Source of the DNA: an uncultured Candidatus Saccharibacteria bacterium | GTDB taxonomy: Bacteria > Patescibacteriota > Minisyncoccia > Phycocordibacterales > UBA12088 | DNA length: 64,000 nt | Direction: 5' to 3' | NCBI GenBank assembly: GCA_964562615.1 | Contig: CAZLUD010000001.1 | Span: 327,628-391,627 of the forward strand | Part shown: piece after piece, positions 1 to 61,672 of the stretch | Numbering within the stretch: the first letter of the stretch is position 1 | Layout: each line of letters opens with the position of its first letter | Translations under genes and position numbers: made by a program | The notes under the pieces: generated by a model | Told to the model about the DNA's origin: nothing | The model's database searches: none | What the model saw: only the letters and a program-made list of their open reading frames with translations

Positions 1-53
1 TCCTAGACGATAGAATCCAGAATCGTATTTTGCGCCCTTCTCTGATATTTCTC

Positions 54-236
54 AATACATAATGCCCTATCGGGCATATCTTTTGTGCGGGAATTTCCGA
101 CCTTGGAAACCTTCGGTTTTCCAACGTTCGCTTTGCTCACTGCCTTCCACCACGGGAGAGAATTCTCTCCCACCGATCTCATTCCGGTATCCCTCAGTAC
201 ATAATGCCCTATCGGGCATATCTTTTGTGCGGGATA
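54..236. repeat. tRNA-Gly(TCC)-linked palindromic element. A 38-bp direct repeat (56-93 and 198-235, consensus ATACATAATGCCCTATCGGGCATATCTTTTGTGCGGGA) contains the tRNA 3' terminus plus its trailer. The ~100 bp core between the copies holds an inverted copy of the tRNA T-arm/acceptor (rc of ATTCCGGTATCCC) and of the anticodon-stem segment (GGAAGGCAGT).
   Basis: The repeat and the inverted segments were aligned by eye. The repeat includes the perfect hairpin ATGCCC-GATA-GGGCAT. Confidence 0.6.
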
Positions 237-298
237 CCGGAATCGAACCGGTACCTACTGCTTGGAAGGCAGTCATTCTACCACTAAACTAATCCCGC
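228..298 (-). tRNA. tRNA-Gly (anticodon TCC). The minus-strand sequence folds as a cloverleaf: GCGGGAT acceptor, anticodon stem ACTGC/GCAGT with loop CTTCCAA, T-arm GGTTCGATTCC. No CCA is encoded.
   Basis: The cloverleaf was read directly from the reverse complement of 228-298. It is 71 nt with a 7-bp acceptor stem, a TTCGATT T-loop and anticodon TCC. Confidence 0.8.
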
Positions 299-330
299 AA
301 TTGCAATGTAGATGATTCTACCAAATAACA

Positions 331-9343: not shown

Positions 9344-9835
9344 CTATGGTATAAGTACGGCACGAGGGTTTATAAGGTGTACATGAAAATGATCAGGGAT
9401 AGATTTAAATTTTTTTGTCGCTTCGATTACATACTGATAGGTATCAGCAATGTGTGTATGTTTAATCTCAATCAATTCCTCCTTCTCTTCTTGGGTTAGC
9501 CCTCGTTCGTCTATGTGACGAATTGGAATAAGCATGTGGTGTACTTCAGCAATCTTTCCGTACGGGAAGGCATTGATAACTATCCGCCAATGAATAAATG
9601 TGTGAATCGCTGGTTCATCACTACAAAGCGGACATCCAGCATCTACTAGTAGCGACTTACGACGAGCTCTATATGCTTCTTCTACCTCGGGTAGTCTCAG
9701 TGATACTGGTGTATACGACATAGTCTGAGTATACATCAATGTTGGTAGTAGATAAAAATAGTGGTCTTGTAACGCTTTTATATCAAACAACACTCGATTC
9801 GGGGCGCCCTTGGCCAAAATATTATCGTGCCACAA
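9344..9835 (-). CDS. HIT (histidine triad) family hydrolase. The annotated N-terminus (MWHDNILAKGAPNRV) is encoded by a repeat unit, so the true start is probably an internal Met.
   Basis: HFHVHLI histidine-triad motif; CPLC zinc-type motif. The first ~15 codons lie in repeat R2, which is duplicated at 10048-10080. Confidence 0.55.
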   Translation of the reverse strand: MWHDNILAKGAPNRVLFDIKALQDHYFYLLPTLMYTQTMSYTPVSLRLPEVEEAYRARRKSLLVDAGCPLCSDEPAIHTFIHWRIVINAFPYGKIAEVHHMLIPIRHIDERGLTQEEKEELIEIKHTHIADTYQYVIEATKKFKSIPDHFHVHLINPRAVLIP

Positions 9836-10126
9836 GGGTACTTCAAGAAATATAGTCGCGTTGCTCCTTATTTCTTTGGTCGCTCGAAGCGTTGCTTCTC
9901 TCTCTGTATTTTGTCGGGGCGCCGAGAAGGGGTCAGCTCACTAAGTACATTGAGTCGCAAACTCCTCAATGTACTAAGTGGCTCCTCCCCGGCCTCGCAG
10001 CCCCATTTCTCACGTTGTTCGAAATGGGGACCCGCTGCTCCGGCTTTCGATTCTCGGCGCCCTTGGCCAAAATAGTATCGCTCGAAGCGTTGCTTCTCTC
10101 TCTGTATTTTGTCGGGGCGCCGAGAA
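9795..10126. repeat. tRNA-Pro-linked composite repeat. A 46-bp direct repeat (9883-9928 and 10081-10126) contains the tRNA-Pro 3' end plus 30 nt of trailer. A ~33-bp direct repeat sits at 9795-9826 and 10048-10080. An inverted copy of the tRNA T-arm/acceptor (TTTCGATTCTCGGCGCCC, 10045-10062) faces the direct copy (GGGGCGCCGAGAA, 9915-9928) across a 120-nt hairpin-rich core. The segment 9827-9882 is an inverted copy of 10915-10975.
   Basis: Aligned by eye. Core hairpins: ACTAAGTACATTGAG/CTCAATGTACTAAGT and CCCCATTTC/GAAATGGGG. Confidence 0.6.
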
Positions 10127-10182
10127 TCGAACTCGGGCTACACGGTCCCAAACCGTGCGTACTACCTCTATACGACGCCCCG
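10112..10182 (-). tRNA. tRNA-Pro (anticodon TGG).
   Basis: Minus-strand cloverleaf: acceptor CGGGGCG/CGCCCCG, anticodon stem CACGG/CCGTG with loop TTTGGGA, T-arm CCGAG-TTCGATT-CTCGG. 71 nt; no CCA encoded. Confidence 0.8.
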
Positions 10183-10253
10183 CGAGACAAAACAATATGA
10201 CTCGTTAAGATAACGTACCACAAAATAAGAATAAAATGAAGCGTATAGCGCTC

Positions 10254-10742: not shown

Positions 10743-10879
10743 TAATCCCCAGAGTTATCCACAGTTTTGACCTATTCTGTGTATTTCTTTTAGGCTGTTT
10801 CGGCACGAATTATACCGAGGATAGGCGCAATAATAGGATGAAAGAATAAAGCAAAATATATCCCTAATGCTCCCGCTCT

Positions 10880-11175
10880 CTCCTCTTATTTAGTGTGCGA
10901 CCTAATTTTGTTGAGCGACCAAAGAAATAAGGAGCAAAGCGACTATATTTCTTGAAGTACCCCTTGTGGCACGTAGCGATTACAAAATGGAAGTACTCTC
11001 TGTGGTGCGACCTAATTTTTACGACCGTAGGGAGATAAAAATGGAAGTACTCTTTGTGGTGCGACCTAATTTTGTTGAGCGACCAAAGAAATAAGGAGCA
11101 AAGCGACTATATTTCTTGAAGTACCCCTTGTGGCACGTAGCGATTACAAAATGGAAGTACTCTTTGTGGTGCGGG
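10880..11175. repeat. Tandem array of two ~115-bp units (approx. 10893-11009 and 11056-11172) separated by a truncated 54-bp unit. Each unit ends with the motif AAAATGGAAGTACTCT(C/T)TGTGGTGCG. The array begins with a duplicate of the tRNA-Gly(GCC) trailer (CTCCTCTTATTTAGTGTGCG).
   Basis: Direct repeats aligned by eye. This is not CRISPR-like: the units are long and the spacer is itself repeat-derived. Confidence 0.7.
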
Positions 11176-11309
11176 TAGGGAGAATCGACCCGCTTTTGCT
11201 AAGCTCGCAATGCTCGCTAAGCACGCTGGTCGCGCCTCGCCGACAATTTTACTTCGCTTTGCTACGTAAAATCGTAGACCGGCTCCGGCGTTCGATTCTC
11301 CCTACCCGC
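11169..11309. repeat. tRNA-Gly(GCC)-linked palindromic element. Perfect 18-19 bp terminal inverted repeats (GTGCGGGTAGGGAGAATCGA ... TTCGATTCTCCCTACCCGC) are copies of the T-arm/acceptor 3' strand of the adjacent tRNA-Gly, and they flank a ~100 nt core. In tRNA sense, the distal arm reads ...CCCGCACCA, ending in a CCA that the genomic tRNA lacks.
   Basis: Seen directly. The core is homologous to the Lys-linked element at 61377-61526 (shared blocks GCTAAGCAC, TCGCCGACAATTTT, CGTAAAATCGTAGACC, GCTCCGGCGTTCGA). Confidence 0.7.
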
Positions 11310-11354
11310 CTAAAATATATCGTCAAAGCTCCGCTTTCTCCTCTTATTTTAGTG

Positions 11355-11425
11355 TGCGGGTAGGGAGAATCGAACTCCCGTCTGCTCCATGGCAAGGAGC
11401 CGTCATACCACTAAACTATACCCGC
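11355..11425 (-). tRNA. tRNA-Gly (anticodon GCC).
   Basis: Minus-strand cloverleaf: acceptor GCGGGTA/TACCCGC, anticodon stem GCTCC/GGAGC with loop TTGCCAT, T-arm GGGAG-TTCGATT-CTCCC. 71 nt; no CCA encoded. Confidence 0.8.
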
Positions 11426-11896: not shown

Positions 11897-13369
11897 ATGG
11901 AGATCACACTACCATACATACCAAATGAAGTGTTACGTGTTACAGAAACACTAGAAAAAGCTGGTTTTGAAGCATATTTAGTTGGTGGTTGCGTTCGTGA
12001 TCTTCTCCTTGGAAGAGCCCCAAAGGATTGGGATATAACCACCAACGCGGTGCCGAGCGAAATCCAATCACTATTTGAAGAAACCTATTACAACAATGAC
12101 TTTGGAACTGTCGGGGTTGTCACCACAAGTGAGCGTGCTTCCCTAAAGGTCATTGAGATAACTCCGTATAGGACAGAAGGTACATATACTGATGCGAGGC
12201 GCCCTGATAGCGTGTCCTTTAGCAAAAAACTATCTGACGACCTTGAAAGGCGTGATTTTAGTATCAATGCAATGGCGTTTCGTGTTTCATCCGAAACACT
12301 TGTTGATATGTTTAATGGTAAGGAAGACCTGAAAAAGGGCCTTATCAGAGCTGTTGGTGATGCAAATAAAAGGTTTTCTGAGGACGCCCTACGCATTTTA
12401 CGTGCTGTTCGCCTTTCTGCTGAACTTGGATTTGTTATTGAAGCAGATACCCTATCCGCAATAGTTACATGTGTAACGCAGCTTGAGAAAATTTCTAAAG
12501 AAAGAATAAGGGATGAATTTTCAAGAATTATGCTTTCAGATAGACCAGCCGAGGCACTGTTTCTCATGAAACAAGTCAAAATGCTTCAGTTTGTGATCCC
12601 TGACATTATGAGATCAATTAATGTTGAGCAGAATAAATCGCACAAATACAACGTATTTGAACACTTGGTGCGCAGCGCACAGCACGCCGCGGACAAAAAT
12701 CTTCCTCTTGATATGAGGTTGGCGGCTCTATTCCATGATATTTCAAAGCCTGAAAGCAGAAGGTTTTCACAGGAAACACATGACTATACGTTCTACGGAC
12801 ATGAAGTAATCGGTGCAAGAGTAACAAAAAGAGCTCTACAAAGCCTTAAATACCCAAACGAACTAGTTGAAAGGGTGTCACTACTGGTCAGGTGGCATAT
12901 GTTTTTTTCTGACCCAGACGAAATTACCCTCTCTGCTGTAAGGAGAATGATCAGTAATGTGGGCAAAGATAATATATGGGACCTACTCGAGCTTAGAATA
13001 TGCGACAGAATTGGTAGTGGTAGACCGAAAGAACAGCCGTTTAGGTTTAGAAAGTATAAGGCAATGGTAGAAGAAGCACTTCGCGACCCGGTGAGTGTTG
13101 GTATGTTAAAGGTTGACGGTGCAAAAATAATGGAAACATTTCATGAGAAACCAGGACCGAGAATTGGATGGACACTGCACGCACTACTTGAAGAAGTTAT
13201 AGAGGATCCTACAAAAAACACAGAGATATTGCTTCTAAAGCGTGCAAAAGAGCTTCTTGAGCTACCAGACCAAGAACTTGAAGTACTAGGAAGAAAAGGG
13301 AAAGAAAAGCGTGATGAGGTTGACGATGCAGAGATAGCTCAGATACAAAAAAAGTACGGTGTACAATAG
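11897..13369 (+). CDS. cca: CCA-adding tRNA nucleotidyltransferase/poly(A) polymerase family enzyme with an HD domain and a Lys/Glu-rich C-terminal tail.
   Basis: Head-domain motif LVGGCVRDLLLGR...DWDI; an HD region (FHDISKPE...H) follows. Confidence 0.75.
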   Translation: MEITLPYIPNEVLRVTETLEKAGFEAYLVGGCVRDLLLGRAPKDWDITTNAVPSEIQSLFEETYYNNDFGTVGVVTTSERASLKVIEITPYRTEGTYTDARRPDSVSFSKKLSDDLERRDFSINAMAFRVSSETLVDMFNGKEDLKKGLIRAVGDANKRFSEDALRILRAVRLSAELGFVIEADTLSAIVTCVTQLEKISKERIRDEFSRIMLSDRPAEALFLMKQVKMLQFVIPDIMRSINVEQNKSHKYNVFEHLVRSAQHAADKNLPLDMRLAALFHDISKPESRRFSQETHDYTFYGHEVIGARVTKRALQSLKYPNELVERVSLLVRWHMFFSDPDEITLSAVRRMISNVGKDNIWDLLELRICDRIGSGRPKEQPFRFRKYKAMVEEALRDPVSVGMLKVDGAKIMETFHEKPGPRIGWTLHALLEEVIEDPTKNTEILLLKRAKELLELPDQELEVLGRKGKEKRDEVDDAEIAQIQKKYGVQ

Positions 13370-15042: not shown

Positions 15043-15993
15043 CTATCTTTTTGTGTGAAAACGTTTATGCACCTCACGGAGGTGTTTGTCTGTAACGTGT
15101 GTATACACTTGTGTAGTAGCAATATTTGCATGACCAAGCAGTGCTTGTACAGAACGCAAGTCTGCACCATTTGAAAGAAGGTCGGTGGCAAATGAGTGTC
15201 TAATGACGTGAGGGGTAACTTTTTTAGTAATACCTGCTTTTATGGCGTACTGCTTGACTATTCTTTCAACAGAGCGGGGATTGAGGCGAGTGGTGGTGGC
15301 GTTTTTTGAACGATTTGATGTCTGCACAAACAGCGCATCATCCATATCTTTTCTTTTGACTAGATAGGCGCGAATAGATTCACGCGCTGAATCAGACAAA
15401 AATACAACGCGCACCTTTTCACCTTTACCACGTACAGAAAACTCTTCCTTTGAAATATCTAAATCACGAGAAAGCGAACAAAGCTCTGACACGCGCAATC
15501 CAGTAGAAAAAAGCAGCTCGAGCATGGCTCTATCACGGAGTGATTTAACATCATCACCATTAGCTGCGGCCATTAAACGGGTGAGTTCTTCAAACGATAT
15601 AAGATCGAGTGATCGTTCTCCAACTTTAGCTAGCTCTATTCGCTCAGGTGAAAGAGATTCAATGCCACGCTTTCTTAAATATTTTAGAAACGCACGTAAA
15701 GCAATAAGGTAGTAATTCTGTGTCTTTTTTTTGAGTGTTTCTTTTCTTCCACCTATTGCAGCGCCAGATTCTTGGCGATTTAGCCATAATCGGTATTCTC
15801 TAAGAAGAGTGTCATCAATGGTTGATGGATTTTCTACCTTTGCAAAGGCAAGAAAACGAGAGAGGTATCGCTCATAATTCTCTATAGTATTGAGAGAGCG
15901 TCCTTTTTCAATCTCAAGGTGTTCTAAAAACTCACGCTTTAGTGTTTCTATGTGCGTGGATGACATGTCACAAGTATGACATCTATGTCGCAA
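15043..15993 (-). CDS. Tyrosine site-specific recombinase, XerC/XerD-like.
   Basis: C-terminal catalytic region HVIRHSFATDLLSNGADLRSVQALLGHANIATTQVYTHV with the catalytic Tyr. The N-terminal SAM-like domain is typical of Xer recombinases. Confidence 0.8.
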   Translation of the reverse strand: MRHRCHTCDMSSTHIETLKREFLEHLEIEKGRSLNTIENYERYLSRFLAFAKVENPSTIDDTLLREYRLWLNRQESGAAIGGRKETLKKKTQNYYLIALRAFLKYLRKRGIESLSPERIELAKVGERSLDLISFEELTRLMAAANGDDVKSLRDRAMLELLFSTGLRVSELCSLSRDLDISKEEFSVRGKGEKVRVVFLSDSARESIRAYLVKRKDMDDALFVQTSNRSKNATTTRLNPRSVERIVKQYAIKAGITKKVTPHVIRHSFATDLLSNGADLRSVQALLGHANIATTQVYTHVTDKHLREVHKRFHTKR

Positions 15994-27052: not shown

Positions 27053-28090
27053 ATGAATGAATCCATACTTCCAAGTAAGCAGTTTATTATTACCGTGATT
27101 GTCATTACGGTACTACTCGGTGGTGGCATCGCGGTATTTTTGAGTACACGAGAATCAGCAAGTAAATTTTTTGCCGAATCAAACGAAAAAGAGATGCGAG
27201 AAATCGCAGAAAAGCTGGTTGCCTCTGACGAAGATGAAGATGGGCTTCTTGATTGGGAAGAATCTCTTTGGAAAACTGATGTAAAAAACCCTGACACTGA
27301 TAGCGACGGCACTTCAGATGGCGAAGAAATCCGCATCGGAAGGGATCCACTTAAACCAACTCCTGGTGATGAAATTACTGTTCAAAGTATTGAGGTATTT
27401 AGAGATACTGCGGTAACTGATGCGCAAATTAAAAACAGCAACCTAACCGCTGAATTTGCCAAAAACTTTTTTGTTGAATACGCAAAAACCAAAGAGGCAG
27501 GTTTACCAGTTGGGATCATGGGAGCAAGTATAGAAAAGGTAGAGAACTTGATTCCGCAAGACCAGTACGAGAATAGAGAGCCTCTTTTTACAGAAGAAGA
27601 TATTTTGATAGCGCCATCTGAAGATAATTACTCCCTACGCGAGTATGGAAATGCTGTTGGGCGTGCATTTGAAAATCACCCGGTTGTAGGGGAGAACATG
27701 CTTGATGTTCTCTATCGAGCGTTGCGTAGCGGAAATAAAGCTGAGCTCGACAAACTACGAGATGCTGCTTCTTCAGTAAGCCTGCTCGCTGAAGAGATTA
27801 TTTCGATTCGAGTCCCTGAACCTCTCGTAGAAAATCATCTTGATTTGCTTAATGCTCTAGCATTTTTTAATGAGATACTTGTCGCATTTGGCAATACATA
27901 CGAAGATCCGCTTGGTGCAACTATTGCAATGACCTACTACCCTAAGACCGCTAAAGAATTAGCAATTATCGGGATATCAACTGCAAAGTACCTTGAGTCG
28001 AGAAATATTGTATACACACGAAATGACCCTGGACATGTATTCAATGAACTACTTGTAATTTATAAGAGATCGCCGAATCTATTTATATGA
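27053..28090 (+). CDS. Hypothetical protein with an N-terminal transmembrane anchor and an acidic Asp-rich segment (DEDEDGLLDWEE...DTDSDGTSDGEE).
   Basis: Hydrophobic N-terminus. Ca-binding-like D-x-D repeats are possible. Confidence 0.35.
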   Translation: MNESILPSKQFIITVIVITVLLGGGIAVFLSTRESASKFFAESNEKEMREIAEKLVASDEDEDGLLDWEESLWKTDVKNPDTDSDGTSDGEEIRIGRDPLKPTPGDEITVQSIEVFRDTAVTDAQIKNSNLTAEFAKNFFVEYAKTKEAGLPVGIMGASIEKVENLIPQDQYENREPLFTEEDILIAPSEDNYSLREYGNAVGRAFENHPVVGENMLDVLYRALRSGNKAELDKLRDAASSVSLLAEEIISIRVPEPLVENHLDLLNALAFFNEILVAFGNTYEDPLGATIAMTYYPKTAKELAIIGISTAKYLESRNIVYTRNDPGHVFNELLVIYKRSPNLFI

Positions 28091-29808
28091 AATCAGTTGC
28101 TAGGGTAGTCACATCTCTTCTGACTCGCTACGTAGCGCCATCTACCATAATAATGGCGTTATTTGCTCCTTCAGTATTTGTTATTGCAACCCCACAAAAA
28201 ACTGAGGCTATTTTTGGATTTGGTGACACTGTAGTTGAGGTGGGTGCAAACCTATATACAAATGTTGCCAATACCGTGGAAGCAGTTTGGGCAACCCTCA
28301 AGGAAGCATCGCTTGATGGTATTGCGTGGTACCTCGCTAAGTTAGTAATACAACGAATGACCGTTGAGATTATCAACTGGATCAATAGAGATTTTGAGGG
28401 CTATCCACAATTTGTTAATAATCTTGGCGTATTTCTTACTGATGTAGTAGACCAAGCCACCGGGGCATTTATACGCGAAAACAATCTTGAGTATTTATGT
28501 AACCCACTGAGTATTCGTATTGCGCTGTTAACGTATCAATACCAACCCATTCAACAGAGGTATTCGTGTACGCTTTCTCAAGTGGTAAACAACGTAGACT
28601 CATTCATACAAGGAAACTTTGCGGAGGGAGGTTGGACGGGATGGTTTTCACACGCCACCATCCCTACCAATAACTTGCCTGGGCAATATCTTGTCATACA
28701 AGGAGAGCTTGTTAAGTACGCCAACAAAAAAGAAGAGAATCAAAAAAACTACCTTTCCTTTGGGCAAGGCATGTTCTCAGACCTTTCGTTTGAGTGGTGC
28801 CAATCAGTAGAAAATACTGAAGGGGTTCCAGATGGATCAGGGGGCGTTCGTTATCAAACCGGTATGACAAGAGATGATTGTCAAATAAAAACACCAGGTA
28901 AATTGATAACAGATCAACTAAGTTGGGTCACGACAAGCCCACTCAGACAACAAGAGCTTGCTGATGAACTAAACGAAGCGATTTCAGCAATCCTCAGTAC
29001 GCTCATGAGTAAATTGCTCTCTGATGGTCTTGCATACCTTACCTCAAGTGGTCTTGGAAGAGGTGCAGCTGGCTCTTCGTATGATGATCTTTTGCGAGAA
29101 GATATTGCACGCCAACAAGAGCGCGTAACAGAAGACATTATCCTTCAGATTGATCAACAAATTGAAGAGGAGCTTGCGCTTGGTAGAGAGCTTGGCTGTT
29201 ATGGCGAAGATCCTGGAGACGGTGATGGAGGGGGCGGGGGTGATGGAGGGGGAGGTGATATTGGTGGAAATGAATTTCACGATGTGCCTATTGGTGACCG
29301 ATCAATACTTCCTGATACCACCACATTCTCAAATATCAGATATACCCCAGCTGATTCATACGCAGCGTACCAAACATCAGGACTAGAACCTCTTACGCCA
29401 ACAGAGTACTATCAAGAACTCACCCTTGCAGGACTCATCGACAGTCCAACCAGCACTACCTGGAGTGAGAATTATACCCTTAGAGAGGTTGGTATCGACG
29501 AGGGCGCAATCATTATTGAGAGAACCGGCGAAGATGCATATCGAGTACTATATGACGCTGACGGAGACGATGTGCGAGAAGTTATCGCAACATCAAGAGA
29601 AGTAGAGGGTCAGTCTGGTACATACACCTTTACCCGCGTCACCGGAGAAGACCTTGGATTTCAAACGCTTGGGGTAAGAAGTAGTGTTGCGGCAGGAGCA
29701 GTAAATGAGGCCTTGAGAGAGTACTACCTAATTAACGAAAACCCTCCTCAAACAAAACTGGAGCCAGTTGGAGGTACAGGCTCAAATGGCACAACAGGGA
29801 ATCGTTAG
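28087..29808 (+). CDS. Hypothetical secreted or membrane-anchored protein (573 aa) with a Gly/Asp-rich linker (GDGDGGGGGDGGGGDIGG).
   Basis: N-terminal hydrophobic segment. Translationally coupled to the upstream gene. Confidence 0.35.
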   Translation: MKSVARVVTSLLTRYVAPSTIIMALFAPSVFVIATPQKTEAIFGFGDTVVEVGANLYTNVANTVEAVWATLKEASLDGIAWYLAKLVIQRMTVEIINWINRDFEGYPQFVNNLGVFLTDVVDQATGAFIRENNLEYLCNPLSIRIALLTYQYQPIQQRYSCTLSQVVNNVDSFIQGNFAEGGWTGWFSHATIPTNNLPGQYLVIQGELVKYANKKEENQKNYLSFGQGMFSDLSFEWCQSVENTEGVPDGSGGVRYQTGMTRDDCQIKTPGKLITDQLSWVTTSPLRQQELADELNEAISAILSTLMSKLLSDGLAYLTSSGLGRGAAGSSYDDLLREDIARQQERVTEDIILQIDQQIEEELALGRELGCYGEDPGDGDGGGGGDGGGGDIGGNEFHDVPIGDRSILPDTTTFSNIRYTPADSYAAYQTSGLEPLTPTEYYQELTLAGLIDSPTSTTWSENYTLREVGIDEGAIIIERTGEDAYRVLYDADGDDVREVIATSREVEGQSGTYTFTRVTGEDLGFQTLGVRSSVAAGAVNEALREYYLINENPPQTKLEPVGGTGSNGTTGNR

Positions 29809-29817
29809 AACAGCAAT

Positions 29818-31596
29818 ATGAATGCAACAAGATCAATCATAATTTCATCGCTTCTGATCATCAGTGCGTACGCATCTTCTGTTTGGATATATTCCCCAAA
29901 GCTCTCTGCTCAGACACCTCCTCAAGAACCAGTTACCTGTGAAGAAGTAGACACCACCATCGCACAGCTCACCGCCCTTCGAGCACGAGCAGAGGCAGCA
30001 GACACTCCAGAGGAGATGCAGGCAGTAGTGGATGAATTTAATAGACTAGAGACACATAATGGTAACGATTTGGTGGTAGCACAACAAGAAAATCAACTTG
30101 AAGATAGAAGAGCATATTTAATAAGTAGAATAGAGGACACAAAGGAGGTTGATGCAGCACAAGGTGGAAGAAATGCAGAAGAGCTTGATGAGCTACTTGC
30201 ACGAGCAGAGGCTGCAGATGACTTTACCGAGCTTGGACGAGTAGAAGGAGAGCTTGGTGAGATACGAGGGAGATTGGGGCTTAGCGGTGGAGGAAGTGGT
30301 GGGGGTGGGGGAGGAGGGGGAGGTGGAGTAATTGGTGGAGGAGGCGATGGATCATGGGCTGGAGGAGTGCTTGATGGCAGTGGCAAAAACAACAGAGCGC
30401 CCGTTCCTGCATTTACAAGAACAGTTGTGCTTGGGCCAGGAGATGATATACAAGGGGCAATTAATAGTGCTACCCCAGGCACTGACATCCAACTCAAAAG
30501 TGGTACGTACAATTACTCCAACCTAAGCATAAGCGGAAAGGGTGGAAATCCGAACGCATGGATACGGCTTGGCAATGCTCCTGGAGAACATCCTATTCTT
30601 AGGCCGACAGGAGGATATGCAACCCTAAACGTGGCAGGCGGTTCGAGCTATATTCTAATTGAGGGACTGGAAATAAATGGGAGTAGGGTGGGAACAACAC
30701 TTCCTGATGGGACATATATTGGATCATGGAATGATATGCTTGCCTACTCTAATAGGAGTTGCAGTAATATCGGATACCATTGCAATCAGGGTATAATGCT
30801 CGGTTGCGGAGGCTGTAATACCAATCAAGGGCACCACATTGTCGTTCGAGATAATGTTACCCACGACTTTGGAGGCTCTGGTATTAGCACCTTTGGTGTT
30901 GATTATGTGATTATTGAAGACAATGTTTCTTTCAATAATGGCAATTTCTCTCGTTATGGGGAGAGTGGTATATCTGCTGGATTTCCAGCACTGGTAGGGG
31001 GAGGAAGCATGAGTGACTACGGCTTTATTGTAAGGAGAAACACCACCTACGATAATAAGCAATACTTGGGGTCAATAGACTGTGGTTGTGGCCCAGGTAT
31101 TACCGATGGTAACGGCATAATTCTTGACGGTATGGATCATAATGGTGCATACAGAAGAGTTCTTGTTGAGAGTAATCTTTCGTACAACAATGGTGTTGAG
31201 GTGCCTGGGCAGGGTGTGCATGGGTCAGGAATGCATTCAGTCGATTCTTCTAATGCAGAGTTCATAAATAACACCGCGTATGGTAATGCAGCTGCGCAGA
31301 TATTTGCATGTTGCGCCTCAAACAACAATAAGTTTTACAACAACATAGCAATAGGCAATAGGCCGTTGTTTGCTGCCCACGGTGTCCCTTTTACTGGAGG
31401 ATGTAACATATCGAGTGGTTCTGAAAATGTACCTACTACTGTTACTGACCCAATGTTTGTAAACCCTAGCGCTGGAGACTTTAGCTTGCGGGCGGGATCT
31501 CCGGCAATAAACGCCGCATGCGGACAAACCGCATCAAGCGACCTTAATGGAGCCCTCGCAAATGGGGCAAAAGATATCGGTGCTATAGAAATGTAG
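29818..31596 (+). CDS. Secreted protein with signal peptide, shared coiled-coil N-module, Gly-rich linker (GGGSGGGGGGGGG) and a C-terminal right-handed parallel beta-helix domain (pectate-lyase/polysaccharide-lyase-like repeats).
   Basis: Recurrent N-x-G/NNG-type beta-helix coil motifs (VRDNVTHDFGGSGIST, IEDNVSFNNGNFSRYGESGISAG, VESNLSYNNGVEVPG, INNTAYGNAAAQ). Confidence 0.5.
   Translation: MNATRSIIISSLLIISAYASSVWIYSPKLSAQTPPQEPVTCEEVDTTIAQLTALRARAEAADTPEEMQAVVDEFNRLETHNGNDLVVAQQENQLEDRRAYLISRIEDTKEVDAAQGGRNAEELDELLARAEAADDFTELGRVEGELGEIRGRLGLSGGGSGGGGGGGGGGVIGGGGDGSWAGGVLDGSGKNNRAPVPAFTRTVVLGPGDDIQGAINSATPGTDIQLKSGTYNYSNLSISGKGGNPNAWIRLGNAPGEHPILRPTGGYATLNVAGGSSYILIEGLEINGSRVGTTLPDGTYIGSWNDMLAYSNRSCSNIGYHCNQGIMLGCGGCNTNQGHHIVVRDNVTHDFGGSGISTFGVDYVIIEDNVSFNNGNFSRYGESGISAGFPALVGGGSMSDYGFIVRRNTTYDNKQYLGSIDCGCGPGITDGNGIILDGMDHNGAYRRVLVESNLSYNNGVEVPGQGVHGSGMHSVDSSNAEFINNTAYGNAAAQIFACCASNNNKFYNNIAIGNRPLFAAHGVPFTGGCNISSGSENVPTTVTDPMFVNPSAGDFSLRAGSPAINAACGQTASSDLNGALANGAKDIGAIEM
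29954..30320 (+). repeat. Copy 1 of a 367-bp near-identical intragenomic repeat encoding the shared N-terminal module. It pairs with 31741-32107.
   Basis: Nucleotide alignment by eye; only a handful of mismatches. Confidence 0.85.
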
Positions 31597-61308: not shown

Positions 61309-61526
61309 ATGGAAGTACATTTGTGGTGCGACCAAAAAATAATGAGCTCTGCGAATATATTTTTTGAAGTACTCTTGTGGTGCGCCCGGGAGCTCGGTCA
61401 CTAGTTGCTAACCATTTTGTACGCTTCGCTTCAAAATGCTAAGCACTTGCGACCCCGACTCGGCGACAATTTTGCTCCATTTCATTTCGCAAAATCGTAA
61501 ACCGCCTCCGTCTTTCGAACCCTACG
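61309..61526. repeat. tRNA-Lys-linked element. It has two copies of the motif (ATGGAAGTACATTTGTGGTGCG at 61309-61330; TTGAAGTACTCTTGTGGTGCG at 61364-61384). The 5' arm is a copy of the tRNA-Lys 3' end including CCA (GTGGTGCGCCCGGGAG, 61377-61395). The ~115 nt core is homologous to the Gly-GCC element core. The distal arm is a degenerate inverted T-arm (TTTCGAACCCT, 61511-61525).
   Basis: Aligned by eye with 11169-11309. Confidence 0.6.
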
Positions 61527-61596
61527 CAAAGCACGAAGGTGCTTTGCTCCACGGGGCACCTAATCAAAATGGAACACCTACGTGTTCTATTTTTCA

Positions 61597-61672
61597 TGGT
61601 GCGCCCGGGAGGGTTCGAACCTCCGACCAATGGCTTAAAAGGCCACTGCTCTACCAGCTGAGCTACAGGCGC
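61597..61672 (-). tRNA. tRNA-Lys (anticodon TTT) with genomically encoded CCA.
   Basis: Minus-strand cloverleaf: acceptor GCGCCTG/CGGGCGC, D-arm GCTC-AGCTGGTA-GAGC, anticodon loop CTTTTAA, T-arm GGAGG-TTCGAAC-CCTCC, 3' ACCA. Confidence 0.85.

Follow-up and report, generated by a model that had tools for sequence, protein, structure and literature searches.

What explains the DNA beyond the 3' end of a transfer RNA (tRNA) gene, tRNA-Gly(TCC), in which parts of that gene recur in both direct and inverted orientation? The gene lies near one edge of a 64,000-nucleotide (nt) stretch from an uncultured Candidatus Saccharibacteria bacterium (contig CAZLUD010000001.1, positions 327,628 to 391,627), hereafter the window; positions are in window coordinates unless another locus (L with a number) is named. 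Our explanation, held with moderate confidence, is a family of miniature insertion elements that encode no protein and reside at the 3' ends of tRNA and transfer-messenger RNA (tmRNA) genes; this locus would hold one unit and the stump of another. The family is apparently undescribed, occurs in Patescibacteria and Elusimicrobia, and is best read as a miniature site-specific integrative element, possibly with a folded hairpin that mimics its target. The evidence observed directly comprises the anatomy, one filled/empty pair of loci, a fixed junction, arrays, clustering in genomes, covariation and a lack of linked genes.

At tRNA-Gly(TCC), a direct repeat of 37 nt is exact at a spacing of 142 nt and extends to 52 nt at 90% identity (41-92 / 183-234). 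In each copy the acceptor 3' strand (TCCCGCA) and discriminator run into 30 nt of trailer that include the hairpin ATGCCC-GATA-GGGCAT. The original prediction, made from the bare sequence, was right about the repeat and its spacing, while its length of 38 bp was one too many and its coordinates were off by a base or two. It had also described a reverse-complement copy of the T-arm and acceptor between the repeats, which was recovered as an inverted arm (13 nt exact, 181-193 vs 231-243; 80% over 25 nt, 172-196 vs 228-252), and a complement of the anticodon stem, which proved exact over 11 nt (139-149 vs 263-273) and covers the 5' strand of that stem and the loop (UGGAAGGCAGU on the tRNA strand). 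By simple arithmetic, about 0.002 matches of 11 nt would arise by chance between a core of about 87 nt and a tRNA of 72 nt, and the longer repeats exceed chance by far.

The DNA between the inverted arm and the distal repeat copy is a core of what we call type C, and the 11-nt complement sits within its conserved linker GUGG.GGAA....CAGUGAGC. Exact-pattern searches of the fetched loci with this core matched L004 only, and a more diverged copy was seen by alignment in L126. Both homologous cores have a hairpin at the position of core hairpin 1 with a different stem sequence. In L126 the segment GGAAAACAGT is complementary to its own tRNA at 8/10 positions, the element reading GGAAAACAGU where the tRNA has CAGUUUUCC. 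The antisense-then-sense tRNA layout that had been proposed thus stands in part: three colinear inverted segments pair at the window locus, and L126 retains 8/10, but the L004 element has no anticodon-complement stretch and the reverse-complemented core is not significantly similar to the tRNA interior (P = 0.13). An inverted pseudo-tRNA was therefore rejected for type C, the match consisting of the arms and one 11-mer. Rfam, applied to window 1-320 at E <= 10, recovered the real tRNA only.

A fold of the whole locus as a single strand gives a long quasi-palindrome that has the trailer hairpin at its centre. In this fold the arm is paired to the T-arm and acceptor, GGAAGGCAGU is paired to the anticodon stem-loop, and UCCCGC of the distal copy joins the 5' acceptor strand. 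The predicted energy of tRNA plus element is -111.6 kcal/mol as RNA (z = -9.5; as DNA, z = -7.0). Folding the locus as a single transcript, a check suggested along with the original prediction, accordingly gave extensive predicted pairing between tRNA and element; an RNA that masks the tRNA 3' end is possible, but it is not the best-supported reading.

Such a quasi-palindrome could also arise with no dedicated machinery. A direct-inverted-direct triplication would be produced by replication template switching at terminator and T-arm palindromes (quasi-palindrome or fold-back synthesis, of the duplication-triplication/inversion-duplication, DUP-TRP/INV-DUP, type), and cores would spread by ectopic gene conversion through the T-loop sequence. 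Several loci in which complementarity begins at the tRNA end and continues across both terminator tracts (A and T) agree with this, as do perfect arms beside diverged cores, identical trailers within one locus (which suggest ongoing homogenisation), and the start of the Gly(TCC) direct repeat exactly at the 7-nt acceptor strand, a natural microhomology. Left unaccounted for are a conserved, covarying core across many tRNA types, genomes and two phyla, a fixed junction at tRNA position 55/56 and strong clustering by genome, and we regard template switching as the whole explanation as improbable.

The structure is not confined to one gene. As had been predicted, four of the five tRNA loci in the window carry an element and tRNA-Arg has no equivalent repeat structure, with the qualification that the core at Gly(TCC) is of type C and the other three are of type A. 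At tRNA-Pro the direct repeat is exact over 49 nt and the inverted repeat measures 17 nt; the corresponding lengths are 20 and 23 nt at tRNA-Gly(GCC), and 15 and 10 nt at tRNA-Lys. A type-A covariance model matches the Pro, Gly(GCC) and Lys elements and not that of Gly(TCC). Read in the sense of the tRNA, the element order is the tRNA; a trailer, often with an A-tract, a GC hairpin and a T-tract; optionally a complement of the acceptor 3' strand, after which there is sometimes a hairpin whose loop is CUGC or CUUC; a complement of the T-stem 3' strand plus AAUCGAA; the core; and finally CGAUUC with the T-stem 3' strand, the acceptor 3' strand and the discriminator. The fullest copies stack an acceptor-like helix onto a T-stem-like one and hold a large insertion. 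At least three core types were distinguished: type A (GCCGGAGC, hairpin, GCGAGGCGG, GGUCGC, hairpin, GUGAC), type B (long hairpin, GURUACUG, small hairpin) and type C (two hairpins and the linker given above).

Recurrence was surveyed in 85 sequences (1.25 Mb), namely the window, four contigs (L001-L004) and 80 loci fetched via the CCA-adding enzyme (L005-L084). A direct copy was scored when at least 11 nt of the last 24 nt of a tRNA recurred within 450 nt downstream, and an inverted copy when at least 10 nt did. Direct copies were found downstream of 48/239 tRNAs and inverted copies of 37/239, 25 tRNAs having both, against 6/249 and 3/249 in the upstream control; the repeats ranged from 12 to 52 nt. 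About 22% of the sampled tRNAs in related genomes were positive and most had no element, and 44 of 74 genomes were without any in the sampled loci (34.8 expected), while 19 had two or more (11.5 expected; permutation P <= 0.0002). The idea that the arrangement is a general feature of tRNA genes was consequently dropped, whereas the claim that a mechanism, and not chance, lies behind it is upheld by a fixed anatomy recurring downstream of tRNAs and tmRNA in many genomes. Syntenic relatives have equivalent elements as well: L004 behind Gly(TCC) and Gly(GCC), L003 behind Gly(GCC) and Arg. The core type at a given tRNA can differ between genomes, and similar cores are found at different tRNAs within one genome.

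The covariance model matched 32 copies in the genome loci and at least 85 in metagenome loci; at least 115 type-A copies are model-supported, and the family is abundant in metagenomes. Among the matches listed, a tRNA or tmRNA lies upstream on the same strand of 89 of 115 copies (median 57 nt), 10 copies sit at contig edges, and for 16 no partner lies within 260 nt; the partners span 18 amino-acid specificities and tmRNA. Small islets (L145) or another unit precede some of the orphan copies. In genome-locus matches the 3' arm generally agrees with its own tRNA at 16-17/17 positions and with other tRNAs at about 8-9; in L119 and L141, where the partner is tmRNA, the arms match the tmRNA 3' end. 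Two loci (L128, L148) are from Elusimicrobia, which together with Patescibacteria makes two phyla.

The direction of the event was read from two loci with common flanking genes (71-78% identity). In L026, a terminator comes directly after tRNA-Gly(TCC). In L126 the same gene is followed by a 47-nt trailer, a type-A unit, an identical 47-nt trailer, a type-C unit, an imperfect 3'-end copy and a homologous terminator. From this filled/empty comparison the distal copy is the ancestral 3' end, and the inserted unit therefore consists of the 3' part, trailer, inverted arm and core. Carried over from L126/L026 to the window, this model would make the proximal trailer at Gly(TCC) part of the inserted unit; with the distal repeat copy there a further, degraded unit begins.

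The displaced copy starts at tRNA position 56 in 37/64 cases, and the inverted arm reaches position 53/54 in 68/75, a figure partly imposed by the search pattern. The arm is closer to the upstream tRNA copy than to the displaced copy in 71/85, a bias partly expected from free decay of the displaced copy. Its exact complementarity to the 3' part of the gene has a median of 11 nt and goes up to 20 or more, with the trailer as loop. A terminator-like hairpin lies within the unit trailer in 42/89 loci (47%, vs 6% of random windows) and after the element in only 23%; the unit may therefore give the tRNA a new terminator in those loci. Arrays, truncated units and inverted cores all occur. The constant T-loop junction, the restriction to tRNA-like targets, the restoration of the gene, the arrays and the inverted core all point to site-specific insertion.

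In L128 (1496-1920), two tandem units follow tRNA-Arg(CCG). The second has its type-A core turned round within the same arms, an inversion that recombination of the inverted repeats on either side may have caused. In L166 (2647-3201), convergent tRNA-Arg(TCT) and tRNA-Val(TAC) genes each have their own element, and the two elements abut tail to tail.

The 3' ends of tRNA and tmRNA genes are classical integration sites of islands, and a remnant of a prophage attachment site had been named at the outset as an alternative. The loci could be degraded attL/attR sites of prophages or genomic islands whose interior was lost. Part of this fits: the repeat is att-like, the distal copy being, in the one pair available (L126/L026), a displaced ancestral 3' end; genuine islets do occur at such sites, with helix-turn-helix (HTH) and NYN genes behind tmRNA in L145 and a serine-recombinase fragment in L146; and repeat arrays of the ssrA 3' end are reported (PMC3146451). 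No integrase, phage or cargo genes bound the elements, however, whose neighbours are housekeeping genes, and no direct copies were found 0.45-12 kb away. The motif occurs in viral contigs only as chance matches in coding sequence, the islets sit between the gene and an older copy, separate from the element, and one structured core of about 110-180 nt with covariation recurs at more than 100 loci. We consider loss of an island very improbable as an explanation. The islet of L145 (2888-4420, about 1.3 kb, between the tmRNA gene and a decayed tmRNA 3' copy) encodes an Xre-type HTH and an NYN-domain protein and looks like toxin-antitoxin-like cargo integrated at tmRNA. Within the window, no reverse transcriptase, transposase or phage module was found among the genes neighbouring the elements, which are housekeeping genes, and no IntI-like gene was found; the sole recombinase is a Xer-like gene (15043-15993), syntenic in relatives.

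The structure of the core was examined on type-A copies. The MAFFT alignment of all copies was poor, so the covariance model was built from five compact copies, for which RNAalifold gave a three-way junction with compensatory pairs at 21/34. In a 32-sequence alignment, paired cells amount to 89.6% (63.8% in shuffles), changes on both sides occur in 33/34 pairs and the covariation score is 0.50 (0.16 in shuffles, 0.05-0.08 in slid controls), with the caveat that this alignment is fitted to the covariance model and that folded single-stranded DNA would give an equal signal. Internal helices contain 49 G.U against 16 A.C, with one conserved G.U, and the sense strand folds better in 22/25 elements, which together mark the tRNA-sense strand as the folded one; the closing helix P1 has little G.U bias (17 vs 12, derived), as template switching would have it. 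Conserved structure, compensatory changes and strand-specific G.U pairs, the generic marks of a structured RNA, are all present. Conserved unpaired type-A motifs are GAAUCGAA.GCCGGAG, GCGAGGCGG, GGUCGC...GUGAC and GCGRCGGC, and GCGACGGC is conserved at the tip of P3 (21 sense vs 0 antisense). The folded strand may be RNA or DNA, and the loop census hints at DNA: predicted tetraloops are GNRA or UNCG in only 9/142, G-N-A triloops are common, and the heptamer GCGAAGC, an exceptionally stable DNA mini-hairpin, is about 18-fold enriched (26 sense, 0 antisense).

A functional non-coding RNA family coupled to tRNA and tmRNA genes has to be taken seriously as a rival, given the age of the core, its conservation across phyla and its strand specificity. 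It would be made by read-through or from its own promoter, with a three-way junction closed by the copy of the partner's acceptor/T-arm; at the RNA level it might be a substrate of RNase P, RNase Z or the CCA-adding enzyme, divert enzymes or toxins that bind the top half of tRNAs, or pair transiently with the tRNA 3' end and so mask it, and its patchiness would reflect lineage-specific gain and loss. The strong covariation and conserved unpaired motifs, the G.U excess with better sense folding, the maintenance of cores at orthologous loci over deep divergence in streamlined genomes, sequence motifs common to two phyla, copies that end in GCACCA as a mature tRNA does, and the extensive predicted pairing of the whole transcript all speak for it. 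Yet a terminator-like hairpin stands between tRNA and element in nearly half of the loci, far more often than after the element, and a promoter scan ahead of the window elements gave no convincing candidate and no sigma-70-type call. The closing helix often takes in the discriminator, which leaves no consistent tRNA-like single-stranded end; the T-loop sequence serves as a helix strand, so there is no mimic of the elbow; and GNRA and UNCG loops are nearly absent. Cores are also found inverted between the same arms, a generic mimic would need no exact copy of its neighbour's sequence, and the filled/empty pair and arrays behave as insertions. On balance we think such an RNA rather unlikely to be the answer.

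Under the insertion reading, which we prefer, a unit in tRNA sense would consist of a replacement 3' part (from about position 56 to the discriminator), a trailer, often with a terminator-like hairpin, an inverted copy of that 3' part and a structured core of about 80-110 nt. The gene survives insertion intact: a new 3' end comes with the unit, accompanied in about half of cases by a terminator-like hairpin, and the direct repeat results from the old 3' end being pushed downstream. Repeated insertion would give arrays, which would then decay. An enzyme acting in trans, such as a tyrosine recombinase of the host or of an island, may insert the unit by site-specific recombination within the T-loop. 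By analogy with attP(+) of the phage CTXphi and with integron attC sites, the two copies, direct and inverted, would come together in a hairpin, probably of single-stranded DNA, that imitates the duplex target, and template switching at the quasi-palindrome or gene conversion would keep the arms matched to the local tRNA.

Several points weigh against this. No recombinase linked to any unit was found, the window having only the syntenic Xer-like gene; at about 140-230 nt, a unit would make a very small double-stranded circle, and we know of no source of single-stranded copies. There is one clean filled/empty pair only, at the flank identity given above, and no polymorphism was seen between strains of one species. 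The cores are of old origin and in part inherited vertically, that of window Pro resembling L014 Pro and that of window Gly(TCC) resembling L004 and L126. The sense-strand bias of G.U pairs and of folding fits a functional RNA equally well, and transfer of a unit to another tRNA species without a chimeric tRNA is left unexplained. The position-56 cases are not fully independent, because the junction is largely a shared type-A trait, and boundaries in the window, set by eye, fall at about 55, 59, 61 and 66.

A bolder version of the insertion reading is put forward tentatively, as a possibility we doubt more than the insertion reading itself: a new protein-less, self-targeting class of mobile DNA shared by Patescibacteria and Elusimicrobia. 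A strand (a DNA or RNA intermediate) carrying copy and anti-copy of the T-arm/acceptor would rebuild the target duplex, the three-way-junction core would recruit a host enzyme or be itself catalytic, and insertion would take place at 55/56 of essentially any tRNA-like gene while repairing it, in an attC/CTX-like or ribozyme-like manner.

Table 1. Features of the tRNA-Gly(TCC) locus and of the other element-bearing tRNA loci in the window.
Feature	Position	Strand	Description
tRNA-Gly(TCC)	228-298	minus	no encoded CCA; ARAGORN and Rfam tRNA model (74.6 bits); ARAGORN adds one base (227)
Proximal repeat copy, Gly(TCC)	198-234	minus	acceptor 3' strand TCCCGCA 228-234 and trailer 198-227, hairpin 204-219
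Inverted arm, Gly(TCC)	172-196	minus	reverse complement of tRNA T-loop, T-stem 3' strand and acceptor
Type-C core, Gly(TCC)	93-171	minus	between inverted arm and distal repeat copy
Core hairpin 1, Gly(TCC)	154-171	minus	GGGAGAGAATTCTCTCCC
Anticodon-complement segment, Gly(TCC)	139-149	minus	11 nt exact vs 263-273
Core hairpin 2, Gly(TCC)	103-124	minus	UUGGAAAACCGAAGGUUUCCAA on the tRNA strand; conserved in L004 and L126
Distal repeat copy, Gly(TCC)	56-92	minus	acceptor 3' strand 86-92 and trailer with hairpin 62-77
Possible heavily decayed older tRNA 3' end	8-26	minus	ACGATTCTGGATTCTATCG; about 11/19 identical to TCGATTCCGGTATCCCGCA in a by-eye alignment; weak
Type-A element 3' of tRNA-Pro(TGG) (10111-10182)	9913-10062	minus	flanked by the 49-nt exact repeat 9880-9928 / 10078-10126 (3' end and trailer)
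Truncated older unit beyond the Pro element	9794-9879	minus	
Type-A element 3' of tRNA-Gly(GCC) (11354-11425)	11167-11309	minus	
Type-A element 3' of tRNA-Lys(TTT) (61597-61672)	61378-61559	minus	extra 5' hairpin between acceptor complement and T-stem complement

The Gly(TCC) locus is cut by the window edge beyond 8-26. On its other side, a perfect 20-bp inverted repeat with a 6-nt loop (322-367) lies 24 nt upstream of the 5' end of the tRNA, between the tRNA and the protease gene; it was scored as a plus-strand terminator. At Gly(GCC), the trailer recurs at about 85% identity (10869-10895 vs 11328-11354), and an array of short degraded units (36, 74 and 54 nt) extends beyond the element on the minus strand (10895-11166), the trio being duplicated with a period of 164 nt. 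These units end in ...GTGCCA or ...GGTCGCACCA, followed by CA(A/G)AGAGTACTTCC. The 3'-end copy within the Gly(GCC) element has CCA and the gene has none; in L004 the situation is reversed. A conserved palindromic 'trailer module' resembling AAAGAAATAAGGAGCAAAGCGACTATATTTCTT (A-tract, AAGGAG, mini-hairpin, GACTATATTT) lies beside units in both orientations (9828-9885, 10922-10981, 11078-11137 and 61330-61375; also in L044, L046 and L126), and may be the loop/terminator part of the mobile unit or a promoter-like -10.

The gene of the CCA-adding enzyme (11897-13369, plus strand), whose homologues put the window within Patescibacteria/Paceibacterota, adjoins the tRNA-Arg / Gly(GCC) / Pro cluster. 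This synteny is kept in L001-L004 and in many of the Paceibacterota loci L005-L084, and most tRNA genes at these loci have no encoded CCA. Two open reading frames (ORFs), 9344-9835 (minus, 163 aa) and 9892-10200 (plus, 102 aa), overlap the Pro element and its remnants, have no Pfam match and are probably not genes. In the region of two large ORFs with no Pfam match (28087-29808 and 29818-31596) there are tandem repeats at 29221-30367, GGTGGAGGA-like and of period 9, 18 and 24 nt, which probably encode Gly-rich repeats.

Other candidates were tried and rejected. Against the families of Rfam 15 (including tmRNA, group I and II introns, known self-cleaving ribozymes and T-box), searched at gathering and permissive thresholds, the elements gave nothing beyond chance-level matches; the gathering score was reached only by tRNAs and by the tmRNA of L119, L141 and L145. 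Group I introns in tRNAs of Patescibacteria lie at anticodon-loop position 35/36 (bioRxiv 10.1101/2025.07.03.662931); here the tRNA genes are uninterrupted, the element is downstream, the junction is at T-loop 55/56 and no Intron_gpI match was obtained. A retro-element with a primer-binding-site-like complement of the tRNA 3' end plus CCA was discarded, CCA not being general (and reversed in L004) and no reverse transcriptase lying nearby. A T-box-like specifier does not fit, the GGA in P2 being conserved whatever the tRNA identity, and the internal loops, inspected by eye only, showed no consensus match to K-turn, hammerhead or hairpin ribozyme. Autonomous relatives were sought in the tRNA-element intervals of L097, L146 and L145, which hold housekeeping genes or unrelated decayed islets.

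The 3' ends of tRNA and tmRNA genes are the best-known landing sites of mobile DNA, and their known occupants are kilobase-scale islands with their own integrase. If the insertion reading is true, no integrative element at these sites would be smaller than this gene-less unit of about 0.2 kb, and it might add a case to the recombination systems that work through a folded single strand; with the T-loop junction fixed and core motifs conserved, the mechanism lends itself to direct tests with oligonucleotides. Should the core turn out to be a functional RNA, two poorly understood phyla would have an abundant RNA class that is so far undescribed. The units fragment short-read assemblies at tRNA loci of candidate-phyla genomes: Logan short-read contigs of the same species (L001, L085, L086) end exactly at tRNA 3'-end repeats (window ~205, ~9909 and 11354). 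The leftover tRNA-like fragments can also mislead annotation.

Searches of Rfam and of the full-text literature found no family or paper that matches, and the closest systems each miss at least one defining feature. Top-half mimics such as the tRNA-like domain of tmRNA share the stacked acceptor-like and T-stem-like helices with a large insertion, and some element copies likewise end in ACCA; in the elements, however, the T-loop is made into a helix, the discriminator is often paired, each partner has one element bearing the partner's own sequence, and there is no Rfam match. Miniature inverted-repeat transposable elements (MITEs) and the repetitive extragenic palindromes and mosaic elements (REP/BIME) are similarly protein-less, about 100-200 nt long, multi-copy, structured, presumably mobilised in trans and assembly-breaking. 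Unlike those of MITEs, the arms differ at each locus, being local tRNA sequence, insertion is at tRNA-like 3' ends only, and the flanking 'duplication' (12-50 nt) includes gene sequence and has no short fixed length.

Islands and prophages at tRNA and tmRNA genes share the targets, the restored 3' end, the displacement of the old end as a direct repeat and tandem accumulation, the last being described for Dehalococcoides ssrA islands in PMC3146451. The elements differ in having no integrase or cargo, in being about 100 times smaller, and in adding an inverted copy of the att region and a covarying structured core.

In integrons, a folded single-stranded attC site recombines with a duplex partner and the product is resolved by replication (PMC4792948). 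The likeness extends to size (57-141 nt), conserved structure with little sequence conservation, strand-specific folding, arrays and a fixed crossover in a short motif (G|TT in attC, T-loop 55/56 in the elements). Unlike attC sites, the elements are accompanied by no IntI, attI, Pc or cassette ORFs, abut each other or housekeeping genes, have tRNA-derived terminal boxes in place of RYYYAAC/GTTRRRY, and contain conserved primary-sequence motifs in the core.

CTXphi is a 7-kb filamentous phage. Its folded single-stranded attP mimics dif and is recombined by the host Xer enzymes with replicative resolution, as PMC3442271 and PMC3089051 describe. The target of the elements is not dif; it is the T-loop/3' end of tRNA or tmRNA, and the elements further depart from CTXphi and from the integrative mobile elements exploiting Xer (IMEX) in having no phage genes, in being gene-less at about 0.2 kb, and in arms that copy whichever tRNA adjoins. 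The recombinase of those systems is host-encoded and unlinked, and by analogy an unlinked host enzyme might serve the elements. Two inverted target-like sites that can fold into a target-mimicking hairpin are present in the elements as in IMEX, where two inverted copies about 90 nt apart fold to mimic the duplex chromosomal site. Both also form tandem arrays at one site. The integrated order in those systems is target-derived copy, rest of the element, inverted copy, spacer and direct copy; that of the elements, namely target-derived copy, spacer, inverted copy, about 90 nt and direct copy, is CTXphi-like.

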